Shown here: in pieces, positions 327 through 10,535 of the stretch
Numbering within the stretch: position 1 is the stretch's first letter
How the letters are laid out: each line of letters begins with the position of its first letter
DNA from: a candidate division WOR-3 bacterium
GTDB taxonomy: Bacteria; Hydrothermota; Tepidihabitantia; Tepidihabitantales; Tepidihabitantaceae
NCBI GenBank assembly: GCA_965648905.1
Contig: CBFGIT010000053.1
Span: 1-10,553, forward strand
Direction of reading: 5' to 3'
DNA: 10,553 nucleotides
Notes under the pieces: generated by a model
What the model was told of the DNA's origin: nothing
Database searches by the model: none
Seen by the model: only the letters and a program-made list of their open reading frames with translations
Position numbers and translations under genes: made by a program

Positions 327-611
327 ATGAGCAAGTTGCTGGAGCAATACCGGGCCGACATCCTACGCATCGCCCGTTCACACGGCGCGCGGCGGATACG
401 CGTGTTCGGGTCGTTCGCCCGCGGTGAGGAACATCAGGACAGCGACCTGGACGTGCTGGTTGACCTCGAACCCGGCCGCGACCTGCTCGACATCGTGGCA
501 ATCAAGCAGGACTTGGAAGCTCTGCTCGGACGCAGGGTTGATGTCGTTACCGAGTCGGCGGTCAGTCCGTACGTCCGTGACGCGGTGCTTGCGGAAGCTG
601 CGGCGCTTTGA
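327..611 (+). CDS. mntA: minimal nucleotidyltransferase (MNT) antitoxin, MntA family
   Basis: 94 aa with the GSX10DXD motif (FGSFARGEEHQDSDLDVLV) and a C-terminal LLGRRVDVVT. Its stop overlaps the start of a HEPN gene (TTGA). Confidence 0.92.
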   Translation: MSKLLEQYRADILRIARSHGARRIRVFGSFARGEEHQDSDLDVLVDLEPGRDLLDIVAIKQDLEALLGRRVDVVTESAVSPYVRDAVLAEAAAL

Positions 612-943
612 AGTCTGACCGGACGTATCTGCTTCACATTCGAGACGCGATTGAGAGGATAGAGCAGTATGCGTCGCACGGCCACGAGGCCTTCCTGAAG
701 GAGTATCACTGGCAGGACGGGATCGTCCGCCAGCTTGAGATTATCGGCGAGGCGACCAAACACCTATCAGCAGAGTTCCGCAAGGCACACCCGCAGATCC
801 CCTGGCAGAGAATCGCCGGTTTGCGGGATGTGCTGATCCACGACTACATGGGAGTTGACTTGTCCGCGGTCTGGGAGATAGTCCAGAACCGTGTCCCGGA
901 GCTGAAGGCTCAGGTCTTGGCCGCGCTCAAAGAGACCGACTAG
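608..943 (+). CDS. hepT: HEPN / DUF86 ribonuclease toxin, HepT family
   Basis: 111 aa, TTG start. RX4HXY motif (RDVLIHDY), plus LEIIGEATK and PQIPWQRIAGLR typical of DUF86. Confidence 0.92.
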   Translation: MKSDRTYLLHIRDAIERIEQYASHGHEAFLKEYHWQDGIVRQLEIIGEATKHLSAEFRKAHPQIPWQRIAGLRDVLIHDYMGVDLSAVWEIVQNRVPELKAQVLAALKETD

Positions 944-1118: not shown

Positions 1119-1988
1119 CTAGCGAGCCAGTGGAACAAGCAGCACCGGCACTGGCGAGCGTCGGGCGACCTTGTTGCTGACTCCGCCGAGGAAGGCTTCG
1201 CCGATATGCCCCAATCCCTGCGAGCCCATCACCACGAGCGAGACGCCATTGCTGGTTGTCCGGTCGATGATCTCCCCGGCGACTGCGCCGTAGGGCACCT
1301 CGATGCTCACGTCCTTGGCCCCCTTTGCCAGCAGTTGGTCGCGTAGTCTTTCAAGCCGGGCCGTATCGATGGCGTTGAACTCGTCCAGCCGGTCCTTGAG
1401 ATGCCGGCCAACCACCTGGTCCTGAACGTGGAGCAGGGTCACCCGCTTGGCGCCGGACTCGACGATTCGCTCAACGTACGCGAAGGCGCATTCGGCATTG
1501 TCGGAAAAGTCGGTCGGATACAGGATGTGGCCGAGGGGGTCGCACGGCACGCCCTCACAGACGGTTGAGGCGCCTTCGGCGCGGAGCTTCATCTTCATCA
1601 GCAGCACCGGCTTGACGGCGCTCTGGATTACGGTGCCGGCAACGCTGCCGAGCAGGATTTCCCTGGCCAGGCTGTGGCCGTGCGAGCCGATGACGATAGC
1701 TGAACACTCCTTCTCAGCGGCAGCCCGGTTGATTTCAATGGCGGGAAGACCCAGCCGGAATTCAGCAGTGGCCTCGAGTCCGCACGCCGCAAGTGCGAGC
1801 CGTTGCTTCTCCAACTCCGGTGCGAGGAGGTCGGAAAGAGTGTTGGCCAGAGTGCCGACGTCGCGGATGTTCTGGCAGTGAACCAGCAACGCCTCCCGGG
1901 TTCCGAGCGGACGCAGACAGGAAACGGCCGCTATCAAGTGCTGCGATGCCGGGGAGAGGTCGGTCGCGACTAGAATACGCCTAAACAC
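1119..1988 (-). CDS. universal stress protein with two tandem USP domains
   Basis: Two USP starts ([19 protein letters not shown]) and two GSxG...LG(S/G)V...PVL motifs. GTG start with AAGGAG RBS, overlapping the acr3 stop by 8 nt. Confidence 0.9.
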
Positions 1989-3207
1989 GGGCAGCTCCTT
2001 TCGAGACGGGAGAACCTGACGGGAACCAGGCCTGCGTCTTCAAACATATCTTCACGAGCATGAGCATTACCGGGACTTCAATGAGGACGCCGACGACCGT
2101 GGCGAGGGCGGCGCCGGAGGAGAGGCCGAAGAGCATCGTCGCGGTGGCGATGGCGACCTCGAAGTGGTTGGAGGCCCCGATCATCGCGGCCGGCGCCGCG
2201 TCGGCATACTTCAACTTGAGCACCTTTGCCAGGCCATAGCCGAGCCAGAAGATGAGGTTGGTCTGGATGAAGAGCGGGATGGCAATCCAGAGAATCGTGA
2301 GCGGGTTCGAGACGATGACTTCACCTTTGAACGAGAAAAGGAGAATGAGTGTGACGAGGAGCGCGATGGTGGTAATTGGCGTGAGCACGTGGAGGAACTT
2401 CGAGGTGAACCAGACCGGCCCTTTGGCGGCGATTATCCACTTCCGCGAGAGATAGCCGGCAACAAGCGGCAGGGCGACGTAGATGGCGATGGATAGAACG
2501 AGCGCCTGCCACGGCACCGGCAGCCGGCCCACGCCGAGCAGGAACCCGCCGAGCGGGCCGTAGAGCAGGAGCATGGTCAGGGAGTTGATGGCGACCATGA
2601 CGAGCGTCAGACCGTCGTTGCCCTTGGCGAGGTAGCCCCAGACCAGGACCATCGCCGTGCAGGGGGCGATACCGAGGAGGATTGCACCGGCAAGGTAGGA
2701 GCGCCAGAGTGGAATCTCCAGCATCTTCACGCCGTTCGCCATCACGACCTTGCCGACACCGTAGACAGCGCCCGGTTCGAGGTTGACCCCGAGCGGCAGT
2801 TTCACGAGGTCGACTGCGTCCTGGCCGATGAGGCCACGAAAGAGCACGCCGAGGAAGAGCATGGCGAGGACGTACATCGTGAAGGGCTTGATGGCCCAGT
2901 TCACGAAGAGGGTCAGCCCGACCGGCTTGCCGCTCTTGCCCGCCTTTATCACCTCGCCGAAGTCAATCTTCACCATGATGGGGTACATCATGAAGAAGAG
3001 GCAGACGGCAATCGGGATGGAGATGACCGGCGCGCCGTTGGTGTAGATGGCGATGCCGTCGAGCGCCTTTGCCAGTCCGGGCGCGAGCTTGCCGAGCAGG
3101 ATGCCCGCGCCGATGCAGGCGAGCACCCAGAGCGTCAGGTACTTCTCAAAGACGTTGAGACCTTTGGGTTTCTTCTCGATGCACGCTTCGGTGACCACCT
3201 GGTTCAT
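1981..3207 (-). CDS. acr3: ACR3-family arsenite efflux transporter
   Basis: 408 aa, highly hydrophobic. Motifs [37 protein letters not shown] (conserved Cys), [21 protein letters not shown]. Confidence 0.96.
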
Positions 3208-3263
3208 CCTACCTTTCCGTCGGGCGTTATGGTCCCGCCGACGAGTCTTGACTCTCTCTTCAT
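3204..3263 (-). pseudogene. 19-aa mini-ORF, a remnant of an ABC ATPase 3' end
   Basis: [19 protein letters not shown] versus the ATPase C-terminus [19 protein letters not shown] (12/19 identical). DNA 3213-3245 matches 3946-3978 at 29/33. Its TGA overlaps the acr3 ATG (ATGA), and AGAGG lies upstream. Confidence 0.8.
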
Positions 3264-3281
3264 GTCAAATCCTCTTGTCGT

Positions 3282-3298
3282 GCTGCCTCACGGGCAGC
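3282..3298 (-). promoter_or_regulatory. hairpin, candidate bacterial SECIS element
   Basis: On the - strand GCTGCC-CGTGA-GGCAGC starts 12 nt after the TGA of the redoxin ORF. The loop has G at position 2 followed by U, and no U-tract follows. Confidence 0.45.
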
Positions 3299-3310
3299 GT
3301 ACTACCTTCC

Positions 3311-3862
3311 TCAGCCAAGGTTCGTGCCCCGGGCATCAGGCTTTACCGATCCGGCCGGCAGGTTCAGACGCTGGGTCAGCGACGCGGCGACGTCGGCCCA
3401 AACCGGCGAACCGCGGTAAATGACCTGCCCGGCGGAGTCCAACAGCACGACATGGGGCACAAACCGCACATCCCAGTCCTGCTGGGTTCGTCGCGTGACA
3501 TCGTACACCACCGTCGCCCCGGCAATACCCTCTCCGTAGGCCTTGCGGACTTCAGGTTCGGGATCGCCGAGGTTCACGAACACGGTCGTGATTTCCATCA
3601 AGCTGAACGTGGCGGCGACCGACGGCAGCTCCTTGCTGGCGGAGGCCGAGAACGGGCACTTGGTGTCAGCGAAAGTCAGGAGCAGGCCCTTCTTGCCGCT
3701 GTATTCCGCCAGCGTCCGCGTCACTCCCTGCAGGTCCGGCAATCGTGTCCCGGTTAATAGCGCCGGTGTGTCCTGCAGCCTGGCTGCGGCCTTGGGCTGG
3801 GAGCCGCAGGCGGTGAGCAGTATGAGCGCGGACAGCGTGTACGCGATTGGCAGGATTCTCAT
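3311..3862 (-). CDS. redoxin (AhpC/TSA- or TlpA-like thioredoxin fold) lipoprotein; may extend to 3302 via Sec
   Basis: Lipobox LLTA-C, LPDLQGVTRTLAEYSGKKGLLLTF, a single-Cys active site (TKCPFS), cis-Pro region FVPHVVLLD, IYRG. GGAGGAG RBS. Confidence 0.85.
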   Translation of the reverse strand: MRILPIAYTLSALILLTACGSQPKAAARLQDTPALLTGTRLPDLQGVTRTLAEYSGKKGLLLTFADTKCPFSASASKELPSVAATFSLMEITTVFVNLGDPEPEVRKAYGEGIAGATVVYDVTRRTQQDWDVRFVPHVVLLDSAGQVIYRGSPVWADVAASLTQRLNLPAGSVKPDARGTNLG

Positions 3863-3930
3863 CAGGACTCCTCCACGATGCGATGCATCGTGGGAAACAG
3901 GCAGATGGCAATCGATGTGTCCATGGCCAT
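3862..3930 (-). pseudogene. acr3: 22-aa mini-ORF, a remnant of an acr3 N-terminal region
   Basis: MAMDTSIAICLFPTMHRIVEES* versus Acr3 [16 protein letters not shown] 3871-3914 matches 2971-3014 at 33/44 without gaps. Its TGA overlaps the redoxin ATG (TGATG). Confidence 0.7.
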
Positions 3931-3936
3931 GTCGGT

Positions 3937-4614
<678 letters not shown>

Positions 4615-4617
4615 GAG

Positions 4618-5835
4618 CTAGTTCTCCTGCAGTGCCGTGCTGGGGTCGAGCCGGGCCGCACGACGGGCCGGGAAGAAGCTGGCGAGAAGCGATATCACGA
4701 TGGATATGCCCAGCGCCCAGAGCAGCAGTATCGGCATCGGCAGCACCGGCACGTTGGCCAGTCTCGGGCCGATGGCAACCGCCAGCACCGTGCCCACGAT
4801 ATAGCCGCTCACGCCGCCGACCAGACCGAGCAGCAGCGCCTTGAGCAGGAACATGCTGAGCACGGCGCGCGAGCCCGCGCCCAGCGCCATCAGCGTGCCG
4901 ATTTCCCGCCGCCGCTCGAACACGTTGGCGTACATGTAGTTGGCGATGGTCGCGCCACCGATGAGGGCGATTATTGCGATGAAGATGAGGGACAGGCTCG
5001 CCATCATCTTGTTGGTCTTTATCTGGGTGTCAACGACTTGGGTGATGGTGACGACCTTGGCTTCGGGGAGCAGCTTGTTTATCTTCTGCACCAAGCCAGT
5101 GTTGATCGCATTGCAGCAACCGACGACCTCAATCGCGTTCACGACCGCGCCCTTGCCGGTCAGCTTCTGCACCGTGTGCAGGTGGCCGAAGATGCGCGAG
5201 TCATCAACCGTGCCGGTCGGGGGCAGCACCGCCGTGACGGCAAAGCTCTGGCCCAGCATCGCGAGCTTGTCCCCTTCATTCAGGTTGGCGGCGACGGCGA
5301 CATCGTTCCCGATCAGGACCTCGTCCTGCTTCAGGTCCTCAATGACCCGCTTGCGGGCGAGGCTTCCCCTGGCGGCTTCCGGCGAGAGCGGCGATTTGAC
5401 GACGGTCCCGCAGTTCTCGGGCCGGGCAAATATGCCAGCGCCCTGCCACGCCGCCTTGGCCTTGAACTCGTTCATGGGCAGAATGCCGGTGAGCGTGAAG
5501 CTGCGTCCCGCCACTTCGACCGGTGAGGACAGCCGCGGGGACAGGTTGTCCAACCCTTGGATGTCCGAGAGCATCAAGCGCTCAACGTACTCTTCCGGGA
5601 AGTCGTCTTCCTGCATGTCCGCGCTGTAGTAGTCCTGCAGCGTCGCCGACTTGGGTAGAATCAGGATGTTCGCGCCCAGGGCATCCAGCTCCCGGGCCAC
5701 GGCCTTCTGCGAGTAGTACGCTACGTTCCTGATGGCGACAATCGCGGTTATGCCGAGGAATATGGCGATAAAGCTCGTCGCCAACTGGTTCTTGCGCTCG
5801 AATATCTCGCGCCAGACTATCGTTCTGAGTTTCAC
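4618..5835 (-). CDS. ABC transporter permease, MacB/FtsX-like (type VII)
   Basis: One N-terminal TM, a large extracytoplasmic domain and three C-terminal TMs. Motifs LGANILILP, ERRREIGTLMALGA, PARRAARLDP. GTG start. Confidence 0.92.
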   Translation of the reverse strand: MKLRTIVWREIFERKNQLATSFIAIFLGITAIVAIRNVAYYSQKAVARELDALGANILILPKSATLQDYYSADMQEDDFPEEYVERLMLSDIQGLDNLSPRLSSPVEVAGRSFTLTGILPMNEFKAKAAWQGAGIFARPENCGTVVKSPLSPEAARGSLARKRVIEDLKQDEVLIGNDVAVAANLNEGDKLAMLGQSFAVTAVLPPTGTVDDSRIFGHLHTVQKLTGKGAVVNAIEVVGCCNAINTGLVQKINKLLPEAKVVTITQVVDTQIKTNKMMASLSLIFIAIIALIGGATIANYMYANVFERRREIGTLMALGAGSRAVLSMFLLKALLLGLVGGVSGYIVGTVLAVAIGPRLANVPVLPMPILLLWALGISIVISLLASFFPARRAARLDPSTALQEN

Positions 5836-5847
5836 GGGTGTTCTTCC

Positions 5848-6822
5848 TTACTTCCCTGTCGGCCCGCAGCCGCTCGGCGCGCAGCCGCCGCTGCCGCAGC
5901 CGCCGGATGTTGCTGCCGTCAACGTGGCGATCATCACATTCTTGTCGGTTGCGCCGGCATACTTCGCGAGGACCGCGCCGGGAGGAGCGAGGAACGCGGT
6001 GACAGCTTCGGTCGTCCCGGGGTCGATCTGGAGTTGCGCGAGGAACTTGGATTCCGCGGCGTCGGTCGGGTCAAGGCTCACAACCTCCGTGAACTTCGCA
6101 TAGCGAGCATCGGCCTTGAACGCGTTGACGCCCTTGAGTGCCGCCTCGTTGGAGGTCGTTGATGCGTTCTGCACGCAGACAAAGACCAACTTGCCTTCCT
6201 GCAAAGCCTTCAGGGATTTCTCCAAGCCCGGGCTGACGAATGCGCCGGAGAGCTGCTCCTCAGTGACCTTGCCCGGGAACCCGCCGGTAACCGCCCCGCT
6301 GGGACCAACCACCAAGGCCAGCGGCATCGGGGCCCGGTCGACCTGGAACTTGGCGACGATGTCCTTCTCGGCGGCGTCGGCTACATTCACGGTGATGGAA
6401 TGGGCCTTGAGCTTTGCCGCCGCGCCTGCGAAGACCTTCTTCATCGCCTGGGTCTCGTCATCGTCGTTGCGATAGAAGAGGACCAGCAGGTACTTGCCGG
6501 CCGCGGCCGCCCGGTCGAGGGCGGCAATGCCGGTCACTTTCTGCGCCAGCTTCGCCGGCGGTGCCGGCGACTCCGCGGATTCGGATGCAGTGCTGGCTGA
6601 TACCGCCTGGTCGGGGACCGATTGCAGTGCCGCTGAATCGACTGGCGCCGGTTGGACCTGCGCAACCGTGCCTGTATCAACGGGCTTTGCCGCCTCGGTT
6701 CGGGCCGGCCCTTGCTGACCGCAGCCGACCAGCATCAGTATCAGTGATGCTGGCACCACCATAGCCGCCAGCGATGCGCGCAGACCGGGATTGTTACGCC
6801 GAGAGAGTAGTCGGGTTACCAT
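5848..6822 (-). CDS. putative lipoprotein with two thioredoxin-like repeats and a Cys/Gly C-terminal tail
   Basis: Start moved to the ATG at 6822 (AAGGAG RBS). Basic N-terminus, hydrophobic stretch, lipobox LVG-C, Ala/Pro/Ser linker, two similar alpha/beta repeats, tail GGCGSGGCAPSGCG. The fold assignment is an inference. Confidence 0.75.
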   Translation of the reverse strand: MVTRLLSRRNNPGLRASLAAMVVPASLILMLVGCGQQGPARTEAAKPVDTGTVAQVQPAPVDSAALQSVPDQAVSASTASESAESPAPPAKLAQKVTGIAALDRAAAAGKYLLVLFYRNDDDETQAMKKVFAGAAAKLKAHSITVNVADAAEKDIVAKFQVDRAPMPLALVVGPSGAVTGGFPGKVTEEQLSGAFVSPGLEKSLKALQEGKLVFVCVQNASTTSNEAALKGVNAFKADARYAKFTEVVSLDPTDAAESKFLAQLQIDPGTTEAVTAFLAPPGAVLAKYAGATDKNVMIATLTAATSGGCGSGGCAPSGCGPTGK

Positions 6823-6870
6823 GTTGCTCCTTCGAATTGGCCGGATTGCCATTGCTTCTTCACTGAGTCT

Positions 6871-7101
6871 CTATCCACCGCAGCAGCCGGTGCCGCCTCC
6901 AGGGCTGCCGCAGCAGCCGCCGGGTTGTGGGACACTGCTACGCGAGCCGCCCAGGATGTTCACGGTCGTCATCGTGCGGCGAACGCGGCCTGAACCGCAG
7001 GCCGGGCACTTCACTTTCAGCCCGCGTTCATACTCGGCAACGCTCACCTGAACGTCGAACATCATCAGGCATTTCTCACATCGGTAGTCATAGGTAGGCA
7101 T
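6871..7101 (-). CDS. FmdB-family zinc-ribbon protein with a Cys-Cys tail
   Basis: MPTYDYRCEKC...CPACGS pattern and tail GGCCGSPGGGTGCCGG. AAGGAG RBS immediately after the arsA stop. Confidence 0.9.
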   Translation of the reverse strand: MPTYDYRCEKCLMMFDVQVSVAEYERGLKVKCPACGSGRVRRTMTTVNILGGSRSSVPQPGGCCGSPGGGTGCCGG

Positions 7102-7112
7102 ATGCGTCTCCT

Positions 7113-8891
7113 TTAGACGGCCGCCACGCTCGCCAGCTCGCGCACGAGCTCACGCAGTCGTCCGGATCCGATTGGCTCAGCCGAGAGCCAGGGCACCAAC
7201 GCCGCGCGTTTCGCCAACTCGTCCACTACCTTCTTGATCTGCGGCAGTTCGGCCTGAGCCCGCGCCGCCGGCAGCGGGTCGCTAGGGTTTCGGACGGCGA
7301 GCGACGAGTTGATTACCCAAGCCCAGGGTTCGATTCCTGCCCGCCGCAGGTCGGCCTGCAGCGCGGCGGCTTCGAGTACCGGGGTCGTCTCGGCGAGCGT
7401 GACAATCAGTATCTTCGTCTGCTTCGGGTCCTGCAGGCGCATCAGCGGCGTCACGAGGTTCATTCCTTCCCGGGCGTGGCGCATTATCTCGTGGTGGTAG
7501 GCGCCGGTGGCGTCGAGGAGCAGTAGTGTATGCCCGGTAGGCGCCGTGTCCACCACGACGAACTTCCGGCGCGACTCGCTGATGGCGCGCGAGAACGCCT
7601 GGAAGACGGCTATTTCCTCCGTGCAGGGCGAGCGCAGGTCCTCCTCAAGCAGGGCGCGCCCCTCGGCGTCGAGGTCCTTGCCCTTGGTCTCGAGCACGTG
7701 CTGCCGATACCGCTCGGTTTCCACTCGCGGGTCGACGCGGCTGACCTGTAGGTTCTCGACGTTTGACTCCACCGTGACGGCGAGGTGCGCGGCCGGGTCC
7801 GTCGTCGTCAGGTGCACCTTGTGCCCGCGGGCAGCCAGCTCGACCGCGACCGCCGCGGCAATCGTCGTCTTGCCCACGCCGCCCTTGCCCATCACCATAA
7901 CCAGGCCATGGTCGTCGGCCGCAATCTCATCGACCAGTTGGCCGAACGACTTGGCCAGGGTTTGCGCCGACAAGGCCGGCACAGCCGCCGGCTGCGGGTT
8001 GGGGGTTGAGGGAGCGAGCAGCTCTCGCAATGCTCGGATGCCGACCATGTCCATCGGCTTGAGCGGCACTCGGTCGGTGGGAAGCTCCCTCAATACCTCG
8101 GGCAGGTGCGCCAGGGCTTCCCGGTCACGGCTTGCCAAAGCCTCGGCAACCGGGTCATCGCTCATCATGTCGGGCATCAATCCGTTGATGATAAGGCGCT
8201 GGTTGGTCAGGCCGAGCGCAGATAGTTCGCCCTTGGTACACGCGGCTTCATTGAGCGCCGACACCTGCGGTCGACTGACCAGTACTACCGTCGTGCGTGC
8301 GCCGTCGCCGAAGGCCTCTATGACCGCGGTATACTGCCGGCGCTGCTTGTCCAATCCGGCCAGCGGGCCGAGGCAGGACGAATCGCTCCCGCTCGTATTC
8401 AGGAAGTTGGACCAGGCGCTGGGCAGCTTCAACAGGCGCAGAGTGTGACCGGTCGGCGCGGTGTCGAAGACGATGTGGCCGAAGCGGCCGATCCTCGACT
8501 CATCGGTCAGGAGCGCCGTGAACTCGTCGAAGGCGGCGATTTCCGTGGTGCAGGCACCGGAGAGCTGCTCCTCCATCTGCCGTACTGCCTGCTCGGGCAG
8601 GACGCCGCGCGCGGGTCCGACGAGTCGGTCCCGGTACGCCTTTGCCGCCGCCTCCGGGTCGATGTCGAGCGCCCAGAGGTTCGGCACGCCCGCAACCGGC
8701 GTCGGGTCATGGTCGCCGATGCTTGCGCCGAACACCTGCCCCAGGTTTGAGGCCGGGTCGGTGCTGACCAGTAGAATCTGCTGTCCCTTATCAGCCAGAT
8801 GGATGGCCGTGGCACAGGCCAGCGAAGTCTTACCGACTCCGCCTTTCCCGGTGAAGAACATGTAGCGGGTCGGCTGCTCATACCACCTCAT
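7113..8891 (-). CDS. arsA: arsenical pump-driving ATPase ArsA
   Basis: Two GKGGVGKT P-loops, two DTAPTGHT motifs, and three metalloid-binding Cys contexts (SGACTTE, SCLGPL, RSPCTEE). Start moved to the ATG at 8891 (592 aa), which removes the overlap with arsD. Confidence 0.96.
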   Translation of the reverse strand: MRWYEQPTRYMFFTGKGGVGKTSLACATAIHLADKGQQILLVSTDPASNLGQVFGASIGDHDPTPVAGVPNLWALDIDPEAAAKAYRDRLVGPARGVLPEQAVRQMEEQLSGACTTEIAAFDEFTALLTDESRIGRFGHIVFDTAPTGHTLRLLKLPSAWSNFLNTSGSDSSCLGPLAGLDKQRRQYTAVIEAFGDGARTTVVLVSRPQVSALNEAACTKGELSALGLTNQRLIINGLMPDMMSDDPVAEALASRDREALAHLPEVLRELPTDRVPLKPMDMVGIRALRELLAPSTPNPQPAAVPALSAQTLAKSFGQLVDEIAADDHGLVMVMGKGGVGKTTIAAAVAVELAARGHKVHLTTTDPAAHLAVTVESNVENLQVSRVDPRVETERYRQHVLETKGKDLDAEGRALLEEDLRSPCTEEIAVFQAFSRAISESRRKFVVVDTAPTGHTLLLLDATGAYHHEIMRHAREGMNLVTPLMRLQDPKQTKILIVTLAETTPVLEAAALQADLRRAGIEPWAWVINSSLAVRNPSDPLPAARAQAELPQIKKVVDELAKRAALVPWLSAEPIGSGRLRELVRELASVAAV

Positions 8892-8907
8892 CAAGACACG
8901 ATTCTCT

Positions 8908-9534
8908 CTATCCTGAACACGAGCAGTTCTCGCCACAGCCCGAGCCGGATGGACTTGCGTTCGGGACCAGGTAGCGTTGAGCAAGGCGCACCATGGCCTG
9001 GGCCGGGGCGTCCTTGACCTGCAGCGCGACGTTTACCGCTGTGATCATGTCCTCGTTCGATGCCCCGAGCTTCCGGGCTTGGTCGTAATGATGCCTGAAG
9101 CAGGGCTCGCAGTTGCTGGCGATTGAAGCACCGATGGCAATCAACTCGGCCACGGCCGGCGTCACGAGTCCTTTGTACGGTTCCTCGGGCACTTCCTCTG
9201 CCGGTTCACTCTCAGCCAGGCCCAACCAGCCCGCCAGTTCGCTCCGGTCCGGGTATGCGCCATGTTGCATCACCCTGCCACCTACAGTGATGACAGGCAG
9301 GCCGTTTCCGTTGTTCTCGTTCATCAAGCGCTTGACCTCGGGGTTCTGGGCGAAGACCAGCGGCTCCTGAGCCAGGTTGTGTCGGCGTACTTCCACCCCT
9401 TTGCGGCGAAGCCAGGCGAGGTCGGCCGAGAACCGGACCTGCTGCGGGTCGGGGTCGGGTCCGCATGCTCCGCTGGGGCAGCACAGCGGCGGGTCGTAGA
9501 CCTCGACTACGGACCTGGTTGAACTCTCAGCCAT
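8908..9534 (-). CDS. arsD: ArsD arsenic metallochaperone fused to an AhpD/carboxymuconolactone-decarboxylase-like domain
   Basis: aa 1-106 are ArsD-like: YDPPLCCPSGACG, RHNLAQEP, GLP, GAYPDRSELAGW. After an acidic linker, aa ~123-190 contain ELIAIGASIASNCEPCFRHH...ARKLGAS, typical of CMD/AhpD. Tail GCGENCSCSG. Confidence 0.88.
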   Translation of the reverse strand: MAESSTRSVVEVYDPPLCCPSGACGPDPDPQQVRFSADLAWLRRKGVEVRRHNLAQEPLVFAQNPEVKRLMNENNGNGLPVITVGGRVMQHGAYPDRSELAGWLGLAESEPAEEVPEEPYKGLVTPAVAELIAIGASIASNCEPCFRHHYDQARKLGASNEDMITAVNVALQVKDAPAQAMVRLAQRYLVPNASPSGSGCGENCSCSG

Positions 9535-9932
9535 TATCTTCCTTTTTCATTACAGCACAGTGTCTTCAACTGCTTCAAAGCGGCCGCCATCGACTTGTCA
9601 GCCGACAGGTAGTCACGGAAGCAGTCCCATAAGCACTCCTCGATGTGATTCCTCGGTTGCGCCAGCCTGTAGTGCATCCACGTCCCGTCGCGGCGCACTT
9701 CGACGACGCCGGCGGAGCGCATGACCGCGAGATGGCGGGATATCTTGTACTCCGGCTCGGCCAGAGCCTCAGCCAACGTGCAGACGCACGTCTCTCCATT
9801 ACGCGAGAGGGCAACGGCGAGCCGCAGGCGCGTCTGGTCGGACAGGGCTCTGAGCAGGGCCGCTTCCTCGACCAAGCCGTTCGTTCCCGCGGCGGGGATT
9901 CGGCTCTGTTTAGTATCTGCGTTTCTGCGCAT
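9534..9932 (-). CDS. arsR: ArsR/SmtB-family As(III)-responsive repressor
   Basis: LRALSDQTRLRL, ETCVCTL (the ELCVCDL metal box), ISRHLAVMR, RRDGTWMHYRL, C-terminal CC. Start moved to the ATG at 9932 because the promoter lies inside the longer ORF. TAATG coupling to arsD. Confidence 0.92.
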   Translation of the reverse strand: MRRNADTKQSRIPAAGTNGLVEEAALLRALSDQTRLRLAVALSRNGETCVCTLAEALAEPEYKISRHLAVMRSAGVVEVRRDGTWMHYRLAQPRNHIEECLWDCFRDYLSADKSMAAALKQLKTLCCNEKGR

Positions 9933-9944
9933 GGACGCATATAT
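9921..9944. promoter_or_regulatory. candidate ArsR operator (imperfect inverted repeat over the start codon)
   Basis: On the - strand TATATGCG-TCCATG-CGCAGAAA, with core TGCG-N6-CGCA and 6/8 arm symmetry. It overlaps the predicted transcription start. Confidence 0.45.
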
Positions 9945-9970
9945 AATACGAGTTCCGGACTCCCTGTCAA
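9943..9970 (-). promoter_or_regulatory. sigma70-type promoter of the ars operon
   Basis: Perfect TTGACA (9970-9965), 16 nt spacer, TATTAT (9948-9943), in an AT-rich patch 10 nt upstream of the arsR ATG. Confidence 0.75.
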
Positions 9971-10052
9971 GAAACATCTCTCGAACGGCGGTTGCCTTTG
10001 GCGTGAAGGTATGCTACATCAGGCGTGTGGCAAGAGCACCGTCAGGCGGGCG

Positions 10053-10535
10053 TCACGACACGAACAGGTTAACCTTCGCTTCCCTGGCCGCGGCGGCGTA
10101 CTCGTTCAGACAGACCACCTTCTTGATGGTCGGTATCAGGTCGTCCTTGTCCACGCCGGTGACGTCCATGGTCATGCTGCAGGCCCACAGGCGAACGCCG
10201 GCCTTGTGGACGATGTCCAACATTTCTCCGGTCGGCGGCACGCCATGCTGGCTCATCATGCCGGTCATCATCTTCCGGCCCATGCCGAGCCAGTTGAAGC
10301 GCGACAGGGGCAGTCGCGACACGCCGCCGCGGTTCATCATGCCCATCATCTTCTGGACGAACCCCTTGCCGCCGCGCAGCCGTCCCTTGTCCTTCTTCAC
10401 TACATTCAGACCCCAGCAGGCGAAGAACACGGTCACGTCCATGCCGGCCTCAGCGAAGCTCTTGGCCAAGAGCAGCGACTTGTGGGCCTTGTCCATATTG
10501 CCGCTGAACAGGAAGATTACGGCCTTGTCCTGCAT
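10053..10535 (-). CDS. DsrE/DsrF/DrsH-like (DsrE2-type) putative sulfur carrier / sulfurtransferase
   Basis: GMDVTVFFACWGL, LPLSRFNWLGMG, ACSMTMDVTGV (conserved Cys), C-terminal NLFV. AGGAG RBS. Confidence 0.87.
   Translation of the reverse strand: MQDKAVIFLFSGNMDKAHKSLLLAKSFAEAGMDVTVFFACWGLNVVKKDKGRLRGGKGFVQKMMGMMNRGGVSRLPLSRFNWLGMGRKMMTGMMSQHGVPPTGEMLDIVHKAGVRLWACSMTMDVTGVDKDDLIPTIKKVVCLNEYAAAAREAKVNLFVS

Follow-up and report, generated by a model that had tools for sequence, protein, structure and literature searches.

The window analyzed here is a stretch of 10,553 nucleotides (nt), contig CBFGIT010000053.1 (C53), from the genome of a candidate division WOR-3 bacterium (3.0 Mb, 99.6% complete), and its minus strand carries a redoxin gene at 3862..3302. 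We think that the best explanation of our data is that this gene encodes an exported lipoprotein whose apparent stop codon UGA is decoded as selenocysteine (Sec), and we give this reading a probability of roughly 0.87. Taken by itself, the decoding of the UGA at 3313..3311 as Sec is very likely, judging from the loci compared below. That is, the hairpin at 3298..3282 would recruit SelB and Sec-tRNA(Sec), the UGA would be read as Sec, and the product, a lipoprotein that is exported and whose thioredoxin fold is TlpA/ResA-like (PRX_like1-type), would end in G-U-G-R. Comparison shows conservation of the UGA, of the short predicted coding extension, of the hairpin, and of the Sec machinery alike.

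Up to the TGA, the open reading frame (ORF; 3862..3314) has 183 codons. When the TGA (3311..3313) is read as Sec, predicted residue 184, it is followed by the codons GGA AGG for Gly and Arg (3305..3310) and by the true stop TAG (3304..3302), which is the third codon past the TGA. The gene thus re-read has 186 codons (183 plus Sec, Gly, and Arg), and the C-terminus becomes ...GTNLG-U-G-R-stop. The start codon ATG (3862..3860), a Shine-Dalgarno-like GGAGGAG (3868..3874) separated from it by 5 nt (3867..3863), and a lipoprotein signal peptide of residues 1-19 (3806..3862) were read from the sequence only. The signal peptide ends in the lipobox L-T-A-C at Cys19 (LLTAC followed by GSQ), which agrees with the lipobox consensus, and an ...A(A/G)C-G lipobox pattern is also present in the homologues. 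Judged by this lipobox, the window protein is predicted to be an exported lipoprotein. The only other Cys is Cys69 in FADTKCPFS, within the active-site motif C-P-F-S (3647..3658), and it is invariant in A3, an alignment of 34 read-through translations. A preliminary description of the window had given the same ORF end, GGC TGA GGA AGG TAG, and a single Cys (CPFS) besides the lipobox Cys; both were reproduced when we read the minus strand and the protein. The gathering thresholds of the Pfam models Redoxin (PF08534; 32.1 bits, cut-off 26.6) and AhpC-TSA (PF00578; 27.4 bits, cut-off 26) were narrowly passed, and these matches denote membership at the domain level only.

The gene was then compared with homologous loci at the DNA level. 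Four gene copies with 46-52% identity were present among 61 related genomes, all within one other genus, and scans of genome and metagenome contigs gave 42 more loci. We examined 46 loci, and in 43 of them the C-terminal end could be used; together with the window, these made 44 rows with 39 distinct sequences, which have 35-66% protein identity to the window in tblastn. We omitted L029 (a chance match of 31 residues), L068 (cut off by the contig end short of the C-terminus), L025 (27 bits at 30% identity), and L035. The last is a 98% copy of L037 that has lost 1 nt at 18 nt ahead of the TGA, and the TGA and the hairpin are still present in its DNA.

At the aligned codon, G-TGA was found in all 39 distinct loci, and the same-codon TGA is also present in L069, L080, and L081. 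None of the 39 loci had TGG, TGC, or TGT at the Sec codon. The preliminary description had made its case depend on homologues keeping G-TGA or having Cys, and not ending in TAA or TAG, at this position, and the loci from tblastn kept G-TGA, with no TAA or TAG at this codon and variation confined to the true stop 2-3 codons further on. The first codon after the TGA was GGC in 18 loci, GGG in 9, GGT in 6, GGA in 1, GCC in 2, and AGC, AAG, and GAC in 1 each; that is, it encodes Gly in 34 of the 39, and all four GGN codons are used. The second codon was AAG in 19 loci, AAA in 9, AGA in 4, AGG in 3, CGC in 2, and CAG and ACC in 1 each, so that Lys or Arg is encoded in 37 of the 39. The extension has two codons (U-x-x-stop) in 19 loci including the window and three codons (U-x-x-x-stop) in the other 20, and the true stop is TAG in 16, TAA in 14, and TGA in 9. 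A first "stop" that never changes, codons behind it that vary synonymously, and a second stop that is free fit a translated Sec codon. An RNA element that is not translated would not easily account for such a combination.

Wholly 3' of the true stop lies a 17-nt hairpin (3282..3298, minus strand; GCTGCC / CGTGA / GGCAGC) that resembles a selenocysteine insertion sequence (SECIS). It starts 12 nt past the TGA and its loop starts 18 nt past the TGA, just as had been described before, and G-U occupies loop positions 2-3. The consensus bacterial SECIS (bSECIS) model, as given in the Fig. 2 legend of PMC13188914, has a loop of 3-9 nt, a stem of 4-16 base pairs (bp), G within the first two loop positions, a spacing of 16-37 nt, and a free energy of -7.5 kcal/mol or below. 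The window hairpin fits this model (6 bp, loop CGUGA, spacing of 18 nt, -9.6 kcal/mol). When the lowest-energy perfect hairpin of each complete family locus was taken, 36 of 37 fitted as well, so the bSECIS search named in the preliminary description turned out in its favor. The sole failure is L023, whose lowest-energy stem lacks a G at either of loop positions 1 and 2; this locus also has a hairpin, GCCGCC/CGTGT/GGCGGC, that resembles those of L022 and L026, both of which fit.

The hairpin begins 11-16 nt past the TGA in 38 of the 39 family loci, and the one locus without it (L033) ends at a contig edge. At least eight different stem sequences retain pairing among the loci, for example GCTGCC/GGCAGC, GCCGCC/GGCGGC, GCACCGCG/CGCGGTGC, CACCACG/CGTGGTG, GCTGCCG/CGGCAGC, and GCGCCGCC/GGCGGCGC. 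The conservation of the hairpin that had been looked for is therefore one of position, with the sequence changing. Because the true stop stands between the UGA and the hairpin, the SECIS would be untranslated. In E. coli, an engineered untranslated 17-nt SECIS past the stop allows Sec to be inserted close to the C-terminus, along with some truncation by release factor 2 (RF2), according to the part of PMC3834832 consulted. An Rfam scan of 3100-3500 gave no match at E <= 10, which is no surprise given the poor coverage of bacterial SECIS elements there.

The host genome contains the machinery for Sec, and all four of selA, selB, selC, and selD, whose presence the preliminary description had left to be checked, were found. 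The tRNA-Sec scored 72 bits against a cut-off of 47 and was called SeC with the anticodon tca by ARAGORN, and selB (348 bits), selA (560 bits), and two selD genes were all above the curated cut-offs. Each of the two selD genes (G000 C4:87631-88554 and C8:88040-88942) contains an in-frame TGA, and the C8 copy adjoins the host selB (C8:89013-90884). Above its cut-off, selA was also found in 10 of 10 other carrier genomes. A gene for SelA or SelB (SelB winged-helix domain) lies beside the family member in L050 and L042, and selA is about 8-9 kb from it on the same contig in G464 (C592) and G318 (C15). These four loci, with Sec-machinery genes beside the family member or within about 9 kb, are unrelated.

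The extent of the family was examined with the A3 profile against 1.84 billion cluster representatives, which gave 6521 matches at E <= 1e-3, of which 76 reached E <= 1e-30. Among the best 150 of the 6521, nearly all top proteins stop at ...(G/S)TxxG, exactly one profile position before Sec, and in local alignment 94 of 165 family library proteins end at the position before Sec. No residue stood at the Sec column in any of the 165, and hence none continues with Cys. A single-sequence protein search returned 8 relatives only, so that profile searches were needed for more. The source records name these proteins only "hypothetical protein" or "thioredoxin-related protein", the NCBI and ENA records of family proteins also end at the TGA, and no NCBIfam model attains its cut-off for the family. 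The distribution is patchy: among 272 genomes of the host phylum, the family was found only in the host and in four genomes of one genus, and it is also present in a planctomycete metagenome-assembled genome and its phylum.

A distant two-domain subfamily (L082-L086, L089, and L090) has GCPGT in its N-terminal domain and (S/T)(S/T)CPFS in its C-terminal domain. All seven loci examined in it end with ...(A/G/T)G-TGA-CGN-(0-1 codon)-stop followed by a hairpin, and 32 of 69 further library proteins end in Gly. This sister subfamily is probably another unlisted Sec-tailed family. A further locus, L088, with a CPYC site, ends in ...GES-TGA-AAA-TAC-TAA. Of 10 extra loci beyond the 39, the bSECIS model fits 8.

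The fold of the family was modeled with AlphaFold2 on A3. The predicted model had a mean local confidence (pLDDT) of 94.6 and a predicted template modeling score (pTM) of 0.90, and its tail is predicted to be ordered, with scores of 93 and 92 for blocks 141-150 and 151-160. The best full-length Foldseek matches of this model were 3u5r, 2ywi, and 2cvb/2ywo (E of 3e-9 to 6e-8, template modeling score of 0.70-0.72, 164-169 columns), followed by ResA, CcmG, DsbE, and TlpA. We take cd02969 to be the CDD label for proteins of the 3u5r, 2ywi, and 2cvb type. A tail of the form ...(I/F)GC(N/S/T)IK is common to 3u5r, 2ywi, 2cvb, and the library protein P0148 (site RCPVS), which bears out the earlier statement that many peroxiredoxin-like redoxins with a CPF site carry a C-terminal Gly-Cys. 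When A3 was aligned with P0148 by hhalign (98.7% probability, 152 columns including the tail), the Sec column fell on the Cys of ...FGCSIK. Cys is the usual counterpart of Sec. It had been suggested that homologues may have Cys at the Sec position; a Cys is indeed aligned to the Sec in this distant family, and none is present there in the core family. According to the part of PMC3091736 consulted, the C-terminal Cys of 2ywi is regarded as a resolving Cys, while the mechanism of PRX_like1 proteins is described as unknown in the corresponding part of PMC3514251.

These findings bear on the partner of the predicted Sec. The 94 Sec-tailed proteins include 14 fragments without the active-site region, and Cys occupies the CPFS position in 78 of the 80 informative proteins. 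One of the two exceptions, P0082, is not really truncated. The other, P0060, has Ser at the active site and a new Cys five residues before the presumed Sec (...HGCTEYG), as if the partner thiol had moved into the tail. In two-domain members, which have an extra N-terminal domain, a third Cys is conserved. According to our reading, Sec184 would stand where PRX_like1 proteins have their C-terminal Cys and would pair with Cys69 of CPFS as a thiol/selenol (selenenylsulfide) couple. On the basis of the co-conservation and the distant alignment, we consider the chances about even that Cys69 and Sec184 form a working redox pair on an ordered C-terminal tail. The preliminary description had named Sec as the redox partner of the CxxS Cys; the co-conservation and the P0060 variant speak for this part of it, which we still infer and do not observe.

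The redoxin gene stands in a string of same-strand genes in the order ArsR, ArsD-CMD, ArsA, FmdB zinc ribbon, thioredoxin-like lipoprotein, MacB/FtsX exporter, redoxin, ACR3, and universal stress protein. The head of this string on the minus strand (7113..9977) is made up of ArsR (9534-9977), an ArsD-CMD fusion (8908-9534), and ArsA (7113-8984). The MacB/FtsX-type ABC exporter lies upstream of the redoxin gene on the minus strand (3937..5835; ATPase at 3937-4614, permease at 4618-5835), and the next gene downstream, also on the minus strand, encodes the arsenite efflux transporter ACR3 (1981..3207; TIGR00832, 371 bits, cut-off 282.8). The placement of the gene in an arsenic operon, which had been claimed before, is therefore borne out by ArsR, ArsD, ArsA, and ACR3 in the same-strand string. 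Sixteen loci including the window had enough flanking sequence for a judgement of context, and arsenic genes lie beside the family member in six of them: the window, L030 (ArsR, an ArsC-like fusion, ArsM), L031 (ArsA, ACR3), L045 (ACR3, ArsM), L057 (ACR3), and L023 (ArsM). ArsM is above the curated cut-off in L030, L045, and L023, and ACR3 is above it in L031, L045, and L057.

Two copies of a direct repeat bracket the redoxin gene. The first, of 45 nt, lies over the ACR3 start (3201..3245) and is 84% identical to the second, which lies over the stop of the ABC-ATPase gene (3934..3978), 733 nt apart from it. From this bracketing repeat, the redoxin gene looks as if it had been inserted, with duplication of the junction, between two genes that were once adjacent.

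We can suggest only tentatively, from the gene neighborhoods, that the protein has a part in arsenic detoxification within the cell envelope. It may repair the thiols of the envelope or shield them from the As(III) that ACR3 exports, or it may bind As(III) or methyl-As(III) directly. Against such a role, 10 of the 16 loci have no arsenic gene, and four of these adjoin a divergent membrane dipeptidase. If Sec is accepted, it is also conceivable, though on the unlikely side, that Cys69/Sec184 is mainly a binding site for As(III)/methyl-As(III) and not a catalytic redox couple, a site that the Cys of the CxxS in the N-terminal domain would join in the two-domain members. The protein would then be a periplasmic arsenic chaperone or scavenger, perhaps one that feeds the adjacent MacB-type exporter. 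The gene directly follows ArsM or ACR3 in several operons, the two-domain members have their third conserved Cys, and the operon of the window includes, besides the MacB/FtsX exporter, two further proteins with a Gly/Cys-rich tail (5848-6852 and 6871-7101). In addition, the Sec of UXX-star, SaoB, and SaoC may be a metal ligand according to the consulted part of PMC13188914. These points are opposed by the structure of the window protein, which has a single domain with one free Cys plus the Sec, by the 10 loci just mentioned, and by the nearest folds, which are those of thiol-disulfide oxidoreductases.

The Sec decoding itself has to be weighed against a more conventional explanation, which we regard as quite improbable: the TGA would be a real stop, the protein would be a redoxin of 183 residues with one Cys, and the hairpin would be a terminator, an mRNA-stability element, or another 3' element, with the bases between the TGA and the hairpin conserved as part of it. 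Gene callers as well as the public records (NCBI and ENA) end the protein at the TGA, which is the commonest stop codon of the host (1998 of 3588 ORFs). Several of our results also weigh against Sec. The loci are related to each other, so that the counts overstate their independence. GC-rich hairpins 3' of genes are common: 316 of 3588 host ORFs of at least 200 codons (8.8%) carry a perfect hairpin with 6 bp or more that starts 11-16 nt past the stop. The window hairpin taken alone is unremarkable, with a z-score of -1.2 for the 64-nt fold, and the hairpin of L083 has a U-run behind it and is terminator-like. Formal covariation is modest; 93.7% of the cells are paired compared with 88.3% in shuffles, and changes on both sides are seen in just 2 of the 6 pairs (9 cells). 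The presence of selA, tried as a test of co-occurrence, was rejected as not discriminating, because selA is also found in 285 of 401 genomes of the phylum sample and its presence in 10 of 10 carriers adds little. The core family has no Cys form (0 of 165), so that the Cys/Sec pair rests on a distant alignment of about 24% identity. Finally, a search of sequencing runs listed no RNA run for the stretch, and the best DNA run had 0.21 of its words.

The signal above chance comes from the conservation across homologues, that is, from the 38 of 39 loci with the hairpin in place, and not from the window hairpin alone. In the formal pair counts (RNAalifold on A2, and covariance model R1 with the fitted alignment A4), six sequences with 8-bp stems are out of register, and therefore these counts understate the pairing; for this reason we relied on the hairpin tests of each sequence instead. 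A real stop would leave unexplained why the two or three codons past the TGA vary synonymously and keep Gly and Lys/Arg, with CGC and AAG, which differ at all three bases, both encoding basic residues. The second in-frame stop always comes at the third or fourth codon and is of all three types, whereas the first never departs from TGA in the 39 loci. Moreover, no T-run lies behind the window hairpin, and a search of 3000-4100 gave no terminator-like site. The tail aligns to the Cys-containing tail of homologues, and the distant subfamily repeats the layout of G-TGA-CGN-stop-hairpin in all seven loci examined. The proposal of the preliminary description that the UGA encodes Sec has thus been supported; none of the results that it had named as fatal (TAA or TAG at this codon, no Cys homologues at all, an unconserved hairpin, or a host without selABC) was obtained.

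Hardly credible is a readthrough of the UGA without Sec, by a near-cognate Trp, Cys, or Arg or by leaky termination that yields a minor extended isoform, since the spacing and the loop G of the hairpin agree with the SelB-type bSECIS model, selA is present in all carrier genomes tested, no member has TGG, TGC, or TGT at the Sec codon, and homologues have at the aligned position a Cys, the residue that usually corresponds to Sec. What favors it is an extension of just 2-3 residues, and E. coli sites that give Sec insertion mixed with RF2 truncation in the consulted part of PMC3834832, so that more than one product is likely anyway.

We compared the Sec-tailed family with known systems. The PRX_like1-type proteins (SMc02350, 3u5r; the Geobacillus kaustophilus protein, 2ywi; the Thermus thermophilus thioredoxin-like protein, 2cvb/2ywo) share with it the thioredoxin fold, the position of the Cys in ...CPF, and a long C-terminal tail whose Gly-Cys aligns on the Sec, with an identity of about 20-24% between the window family and the solved proteins. 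In contrast, their tail is IGC(N/S/T)IK with Cys, while that of the window family is G-U-G-K/R-stop with Sec. They mostly have CxxC (CNHC, C-x-x-CPF) and the window protein has CPFS; the PRX_like1-type members L074-76 start without a signal peptide, whereas the window protein is a predicted lipoprotein. ResA, TlpA, CcmG, and DsbE resemble the family in their fold, their envelope location, and their strong structural matches, but they have CxxC without a C-terminal partner, whereas the window protein has CPFS and most family members have CxxS. The best NCBIfam match of the window protein was the ResA model NF002854, which was below threshold (20 bits, cut-off 170).

The UXX-star and GUXX-star families (NF041114, NF041211, and NF041212) are listed with Sec near the C-terminus in PMC13188914. 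These families and SaoC, which has a C-terminal Cys-Sec, are alike to the window family in having Sec 2-3 residues from the C-terminus and a thioredoxin-type fold, and some of them are linked to metal or metalloid handling. With Sec at such a distance, their SECIS must lie past the stop. The UXX-star models of NCBIfam are, unlike the window family, glutaredoxin-like domains of about 70 positions. NF041114, NF041211, and NF041212 gave no match at E <= 0.01 in the window protein and 11 further Sec-tailed relatives, and the host genome has no member above their cut-offs.

Table 1 of PMC13188914 (2026) contains 119 selenoprotein families, and a family with a tail Sec of the present kind is not listed among them. 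The Redoxin UxxC, UGC-containing TlpA, Prx-like UxxC, and PRX_like2 UxxS families of this table are likewise bacterial selenoproteins with a thioredoxin fold that were predicted by the same comparative logic. As listed there, the Redoxin, TlpA, and Prx-like selenoproteins have Sec in the N-terminal active-site motif, whereas the window family has Cys there and Sec in the tail. Mammalian thioredoxin reductase (Gly-Cys-Sec-Gly) and the engineered Sel-tag proteins of E. coli also have Sec near the C-terminus on a tail. These proteins are unrelated to the window family, and their partner Cys adjoins the Sec, whereas that of the window protein is 115 residues upstream. The comparison of mechanism goes no further than analogy. 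The Sel-tag layout, an untranslated 17-nt SECIS past the stop as described in the consulted part of PMC3834832, would occur naturally in the window. We found no description of the family in the literature, with Haft & Tolstoy 2025 and the BSepDB family table, which could list it, being outside the comparison. All in all, the most fitting description is that of a new family of selenoproteins with a known design, namely a thioredoxin fold, a Sec near the C-terminus, and a SECIS in the 3' untranslated region (3'-UTR).

Some other features of the window were observed. Two genes of the same-strand string are not usual ars genes: one (5848-6852, minus strand) encodes a lipoprotein of 334 amino acids with a Gly/Cys-rich C-terminal tail and a weak thioredoxin-like match, and the other (6871-7101, minus strand) an FmdB-family zinc ribbon with a similar Gly/Cys-rich tail. 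The 5848-6852 lipoprotein was considered as a homologue of the extra N-terminal domain of the two-domain members and rejected as not homologous, and a protein atlas gave just unnamed thioredoxin-like clusters for it. Within the arsenic operon, the MacB/FtsX-type exporter has ArsA on one side and the redoxin gene on the other. The fusion to ArsD consists of a CMD/AhpD-like domain with a CxxC motif, and this AhpD part bears a weak resemblance to the one in the ArsM/AhpD selenoprotein model NF041537 (34.9 bits, far below the cut-off). Just upstream of ArsR, and also on the minus strand, lies a gene for a DsrE/DrsE_2-family protein (10053-10535). At the other end of the window (327-943, plus strand), genes for an MNT-like nucleotidyltransferase and a HepT-like ribonuclease overlap at 608-611 in a toxin-antitoxin-like layout.

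If our reading is true, public databases cut short no fewer than 76 clusters of proteins (50% identity, E <= 1e-30), probably with a second subfamily besides, and the records would be without the residue most likely to do the chemistry. The claim lends itself to a direct test, since three residues separate the predicted C-terminal peptide from the cut-short one. The window and its homologues would be natural examples of a bacterial SECIS wholly past the stop, the layout used in engineered Sel-tag constructs, and, together with the sister subfamily (...AG-U-R), they would mean that a bacterial SECIS wholly in the 3'-UTR is widespread in nature and not a laboratory trick. The arsenic-linked selenoproteins listed so far in Table 1 of PMC13188914 are an arsenite methyltransferase and arsenate reductases, and an exported, lipid-anchored selenoprotein would be added to the arsenic-resistance operons. 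We speculate, as an idea that is more probably wrong than right, that the family is an obligately Sec-containing exported lipoprotein family whose Cys/Sec site, with the third Cys where present, binds or processes As(III), or its methylated form, in the envelope. Arsenic resistance would then include a selenium-dependent extracytoplasmic step, after ACR3 and ArsM.

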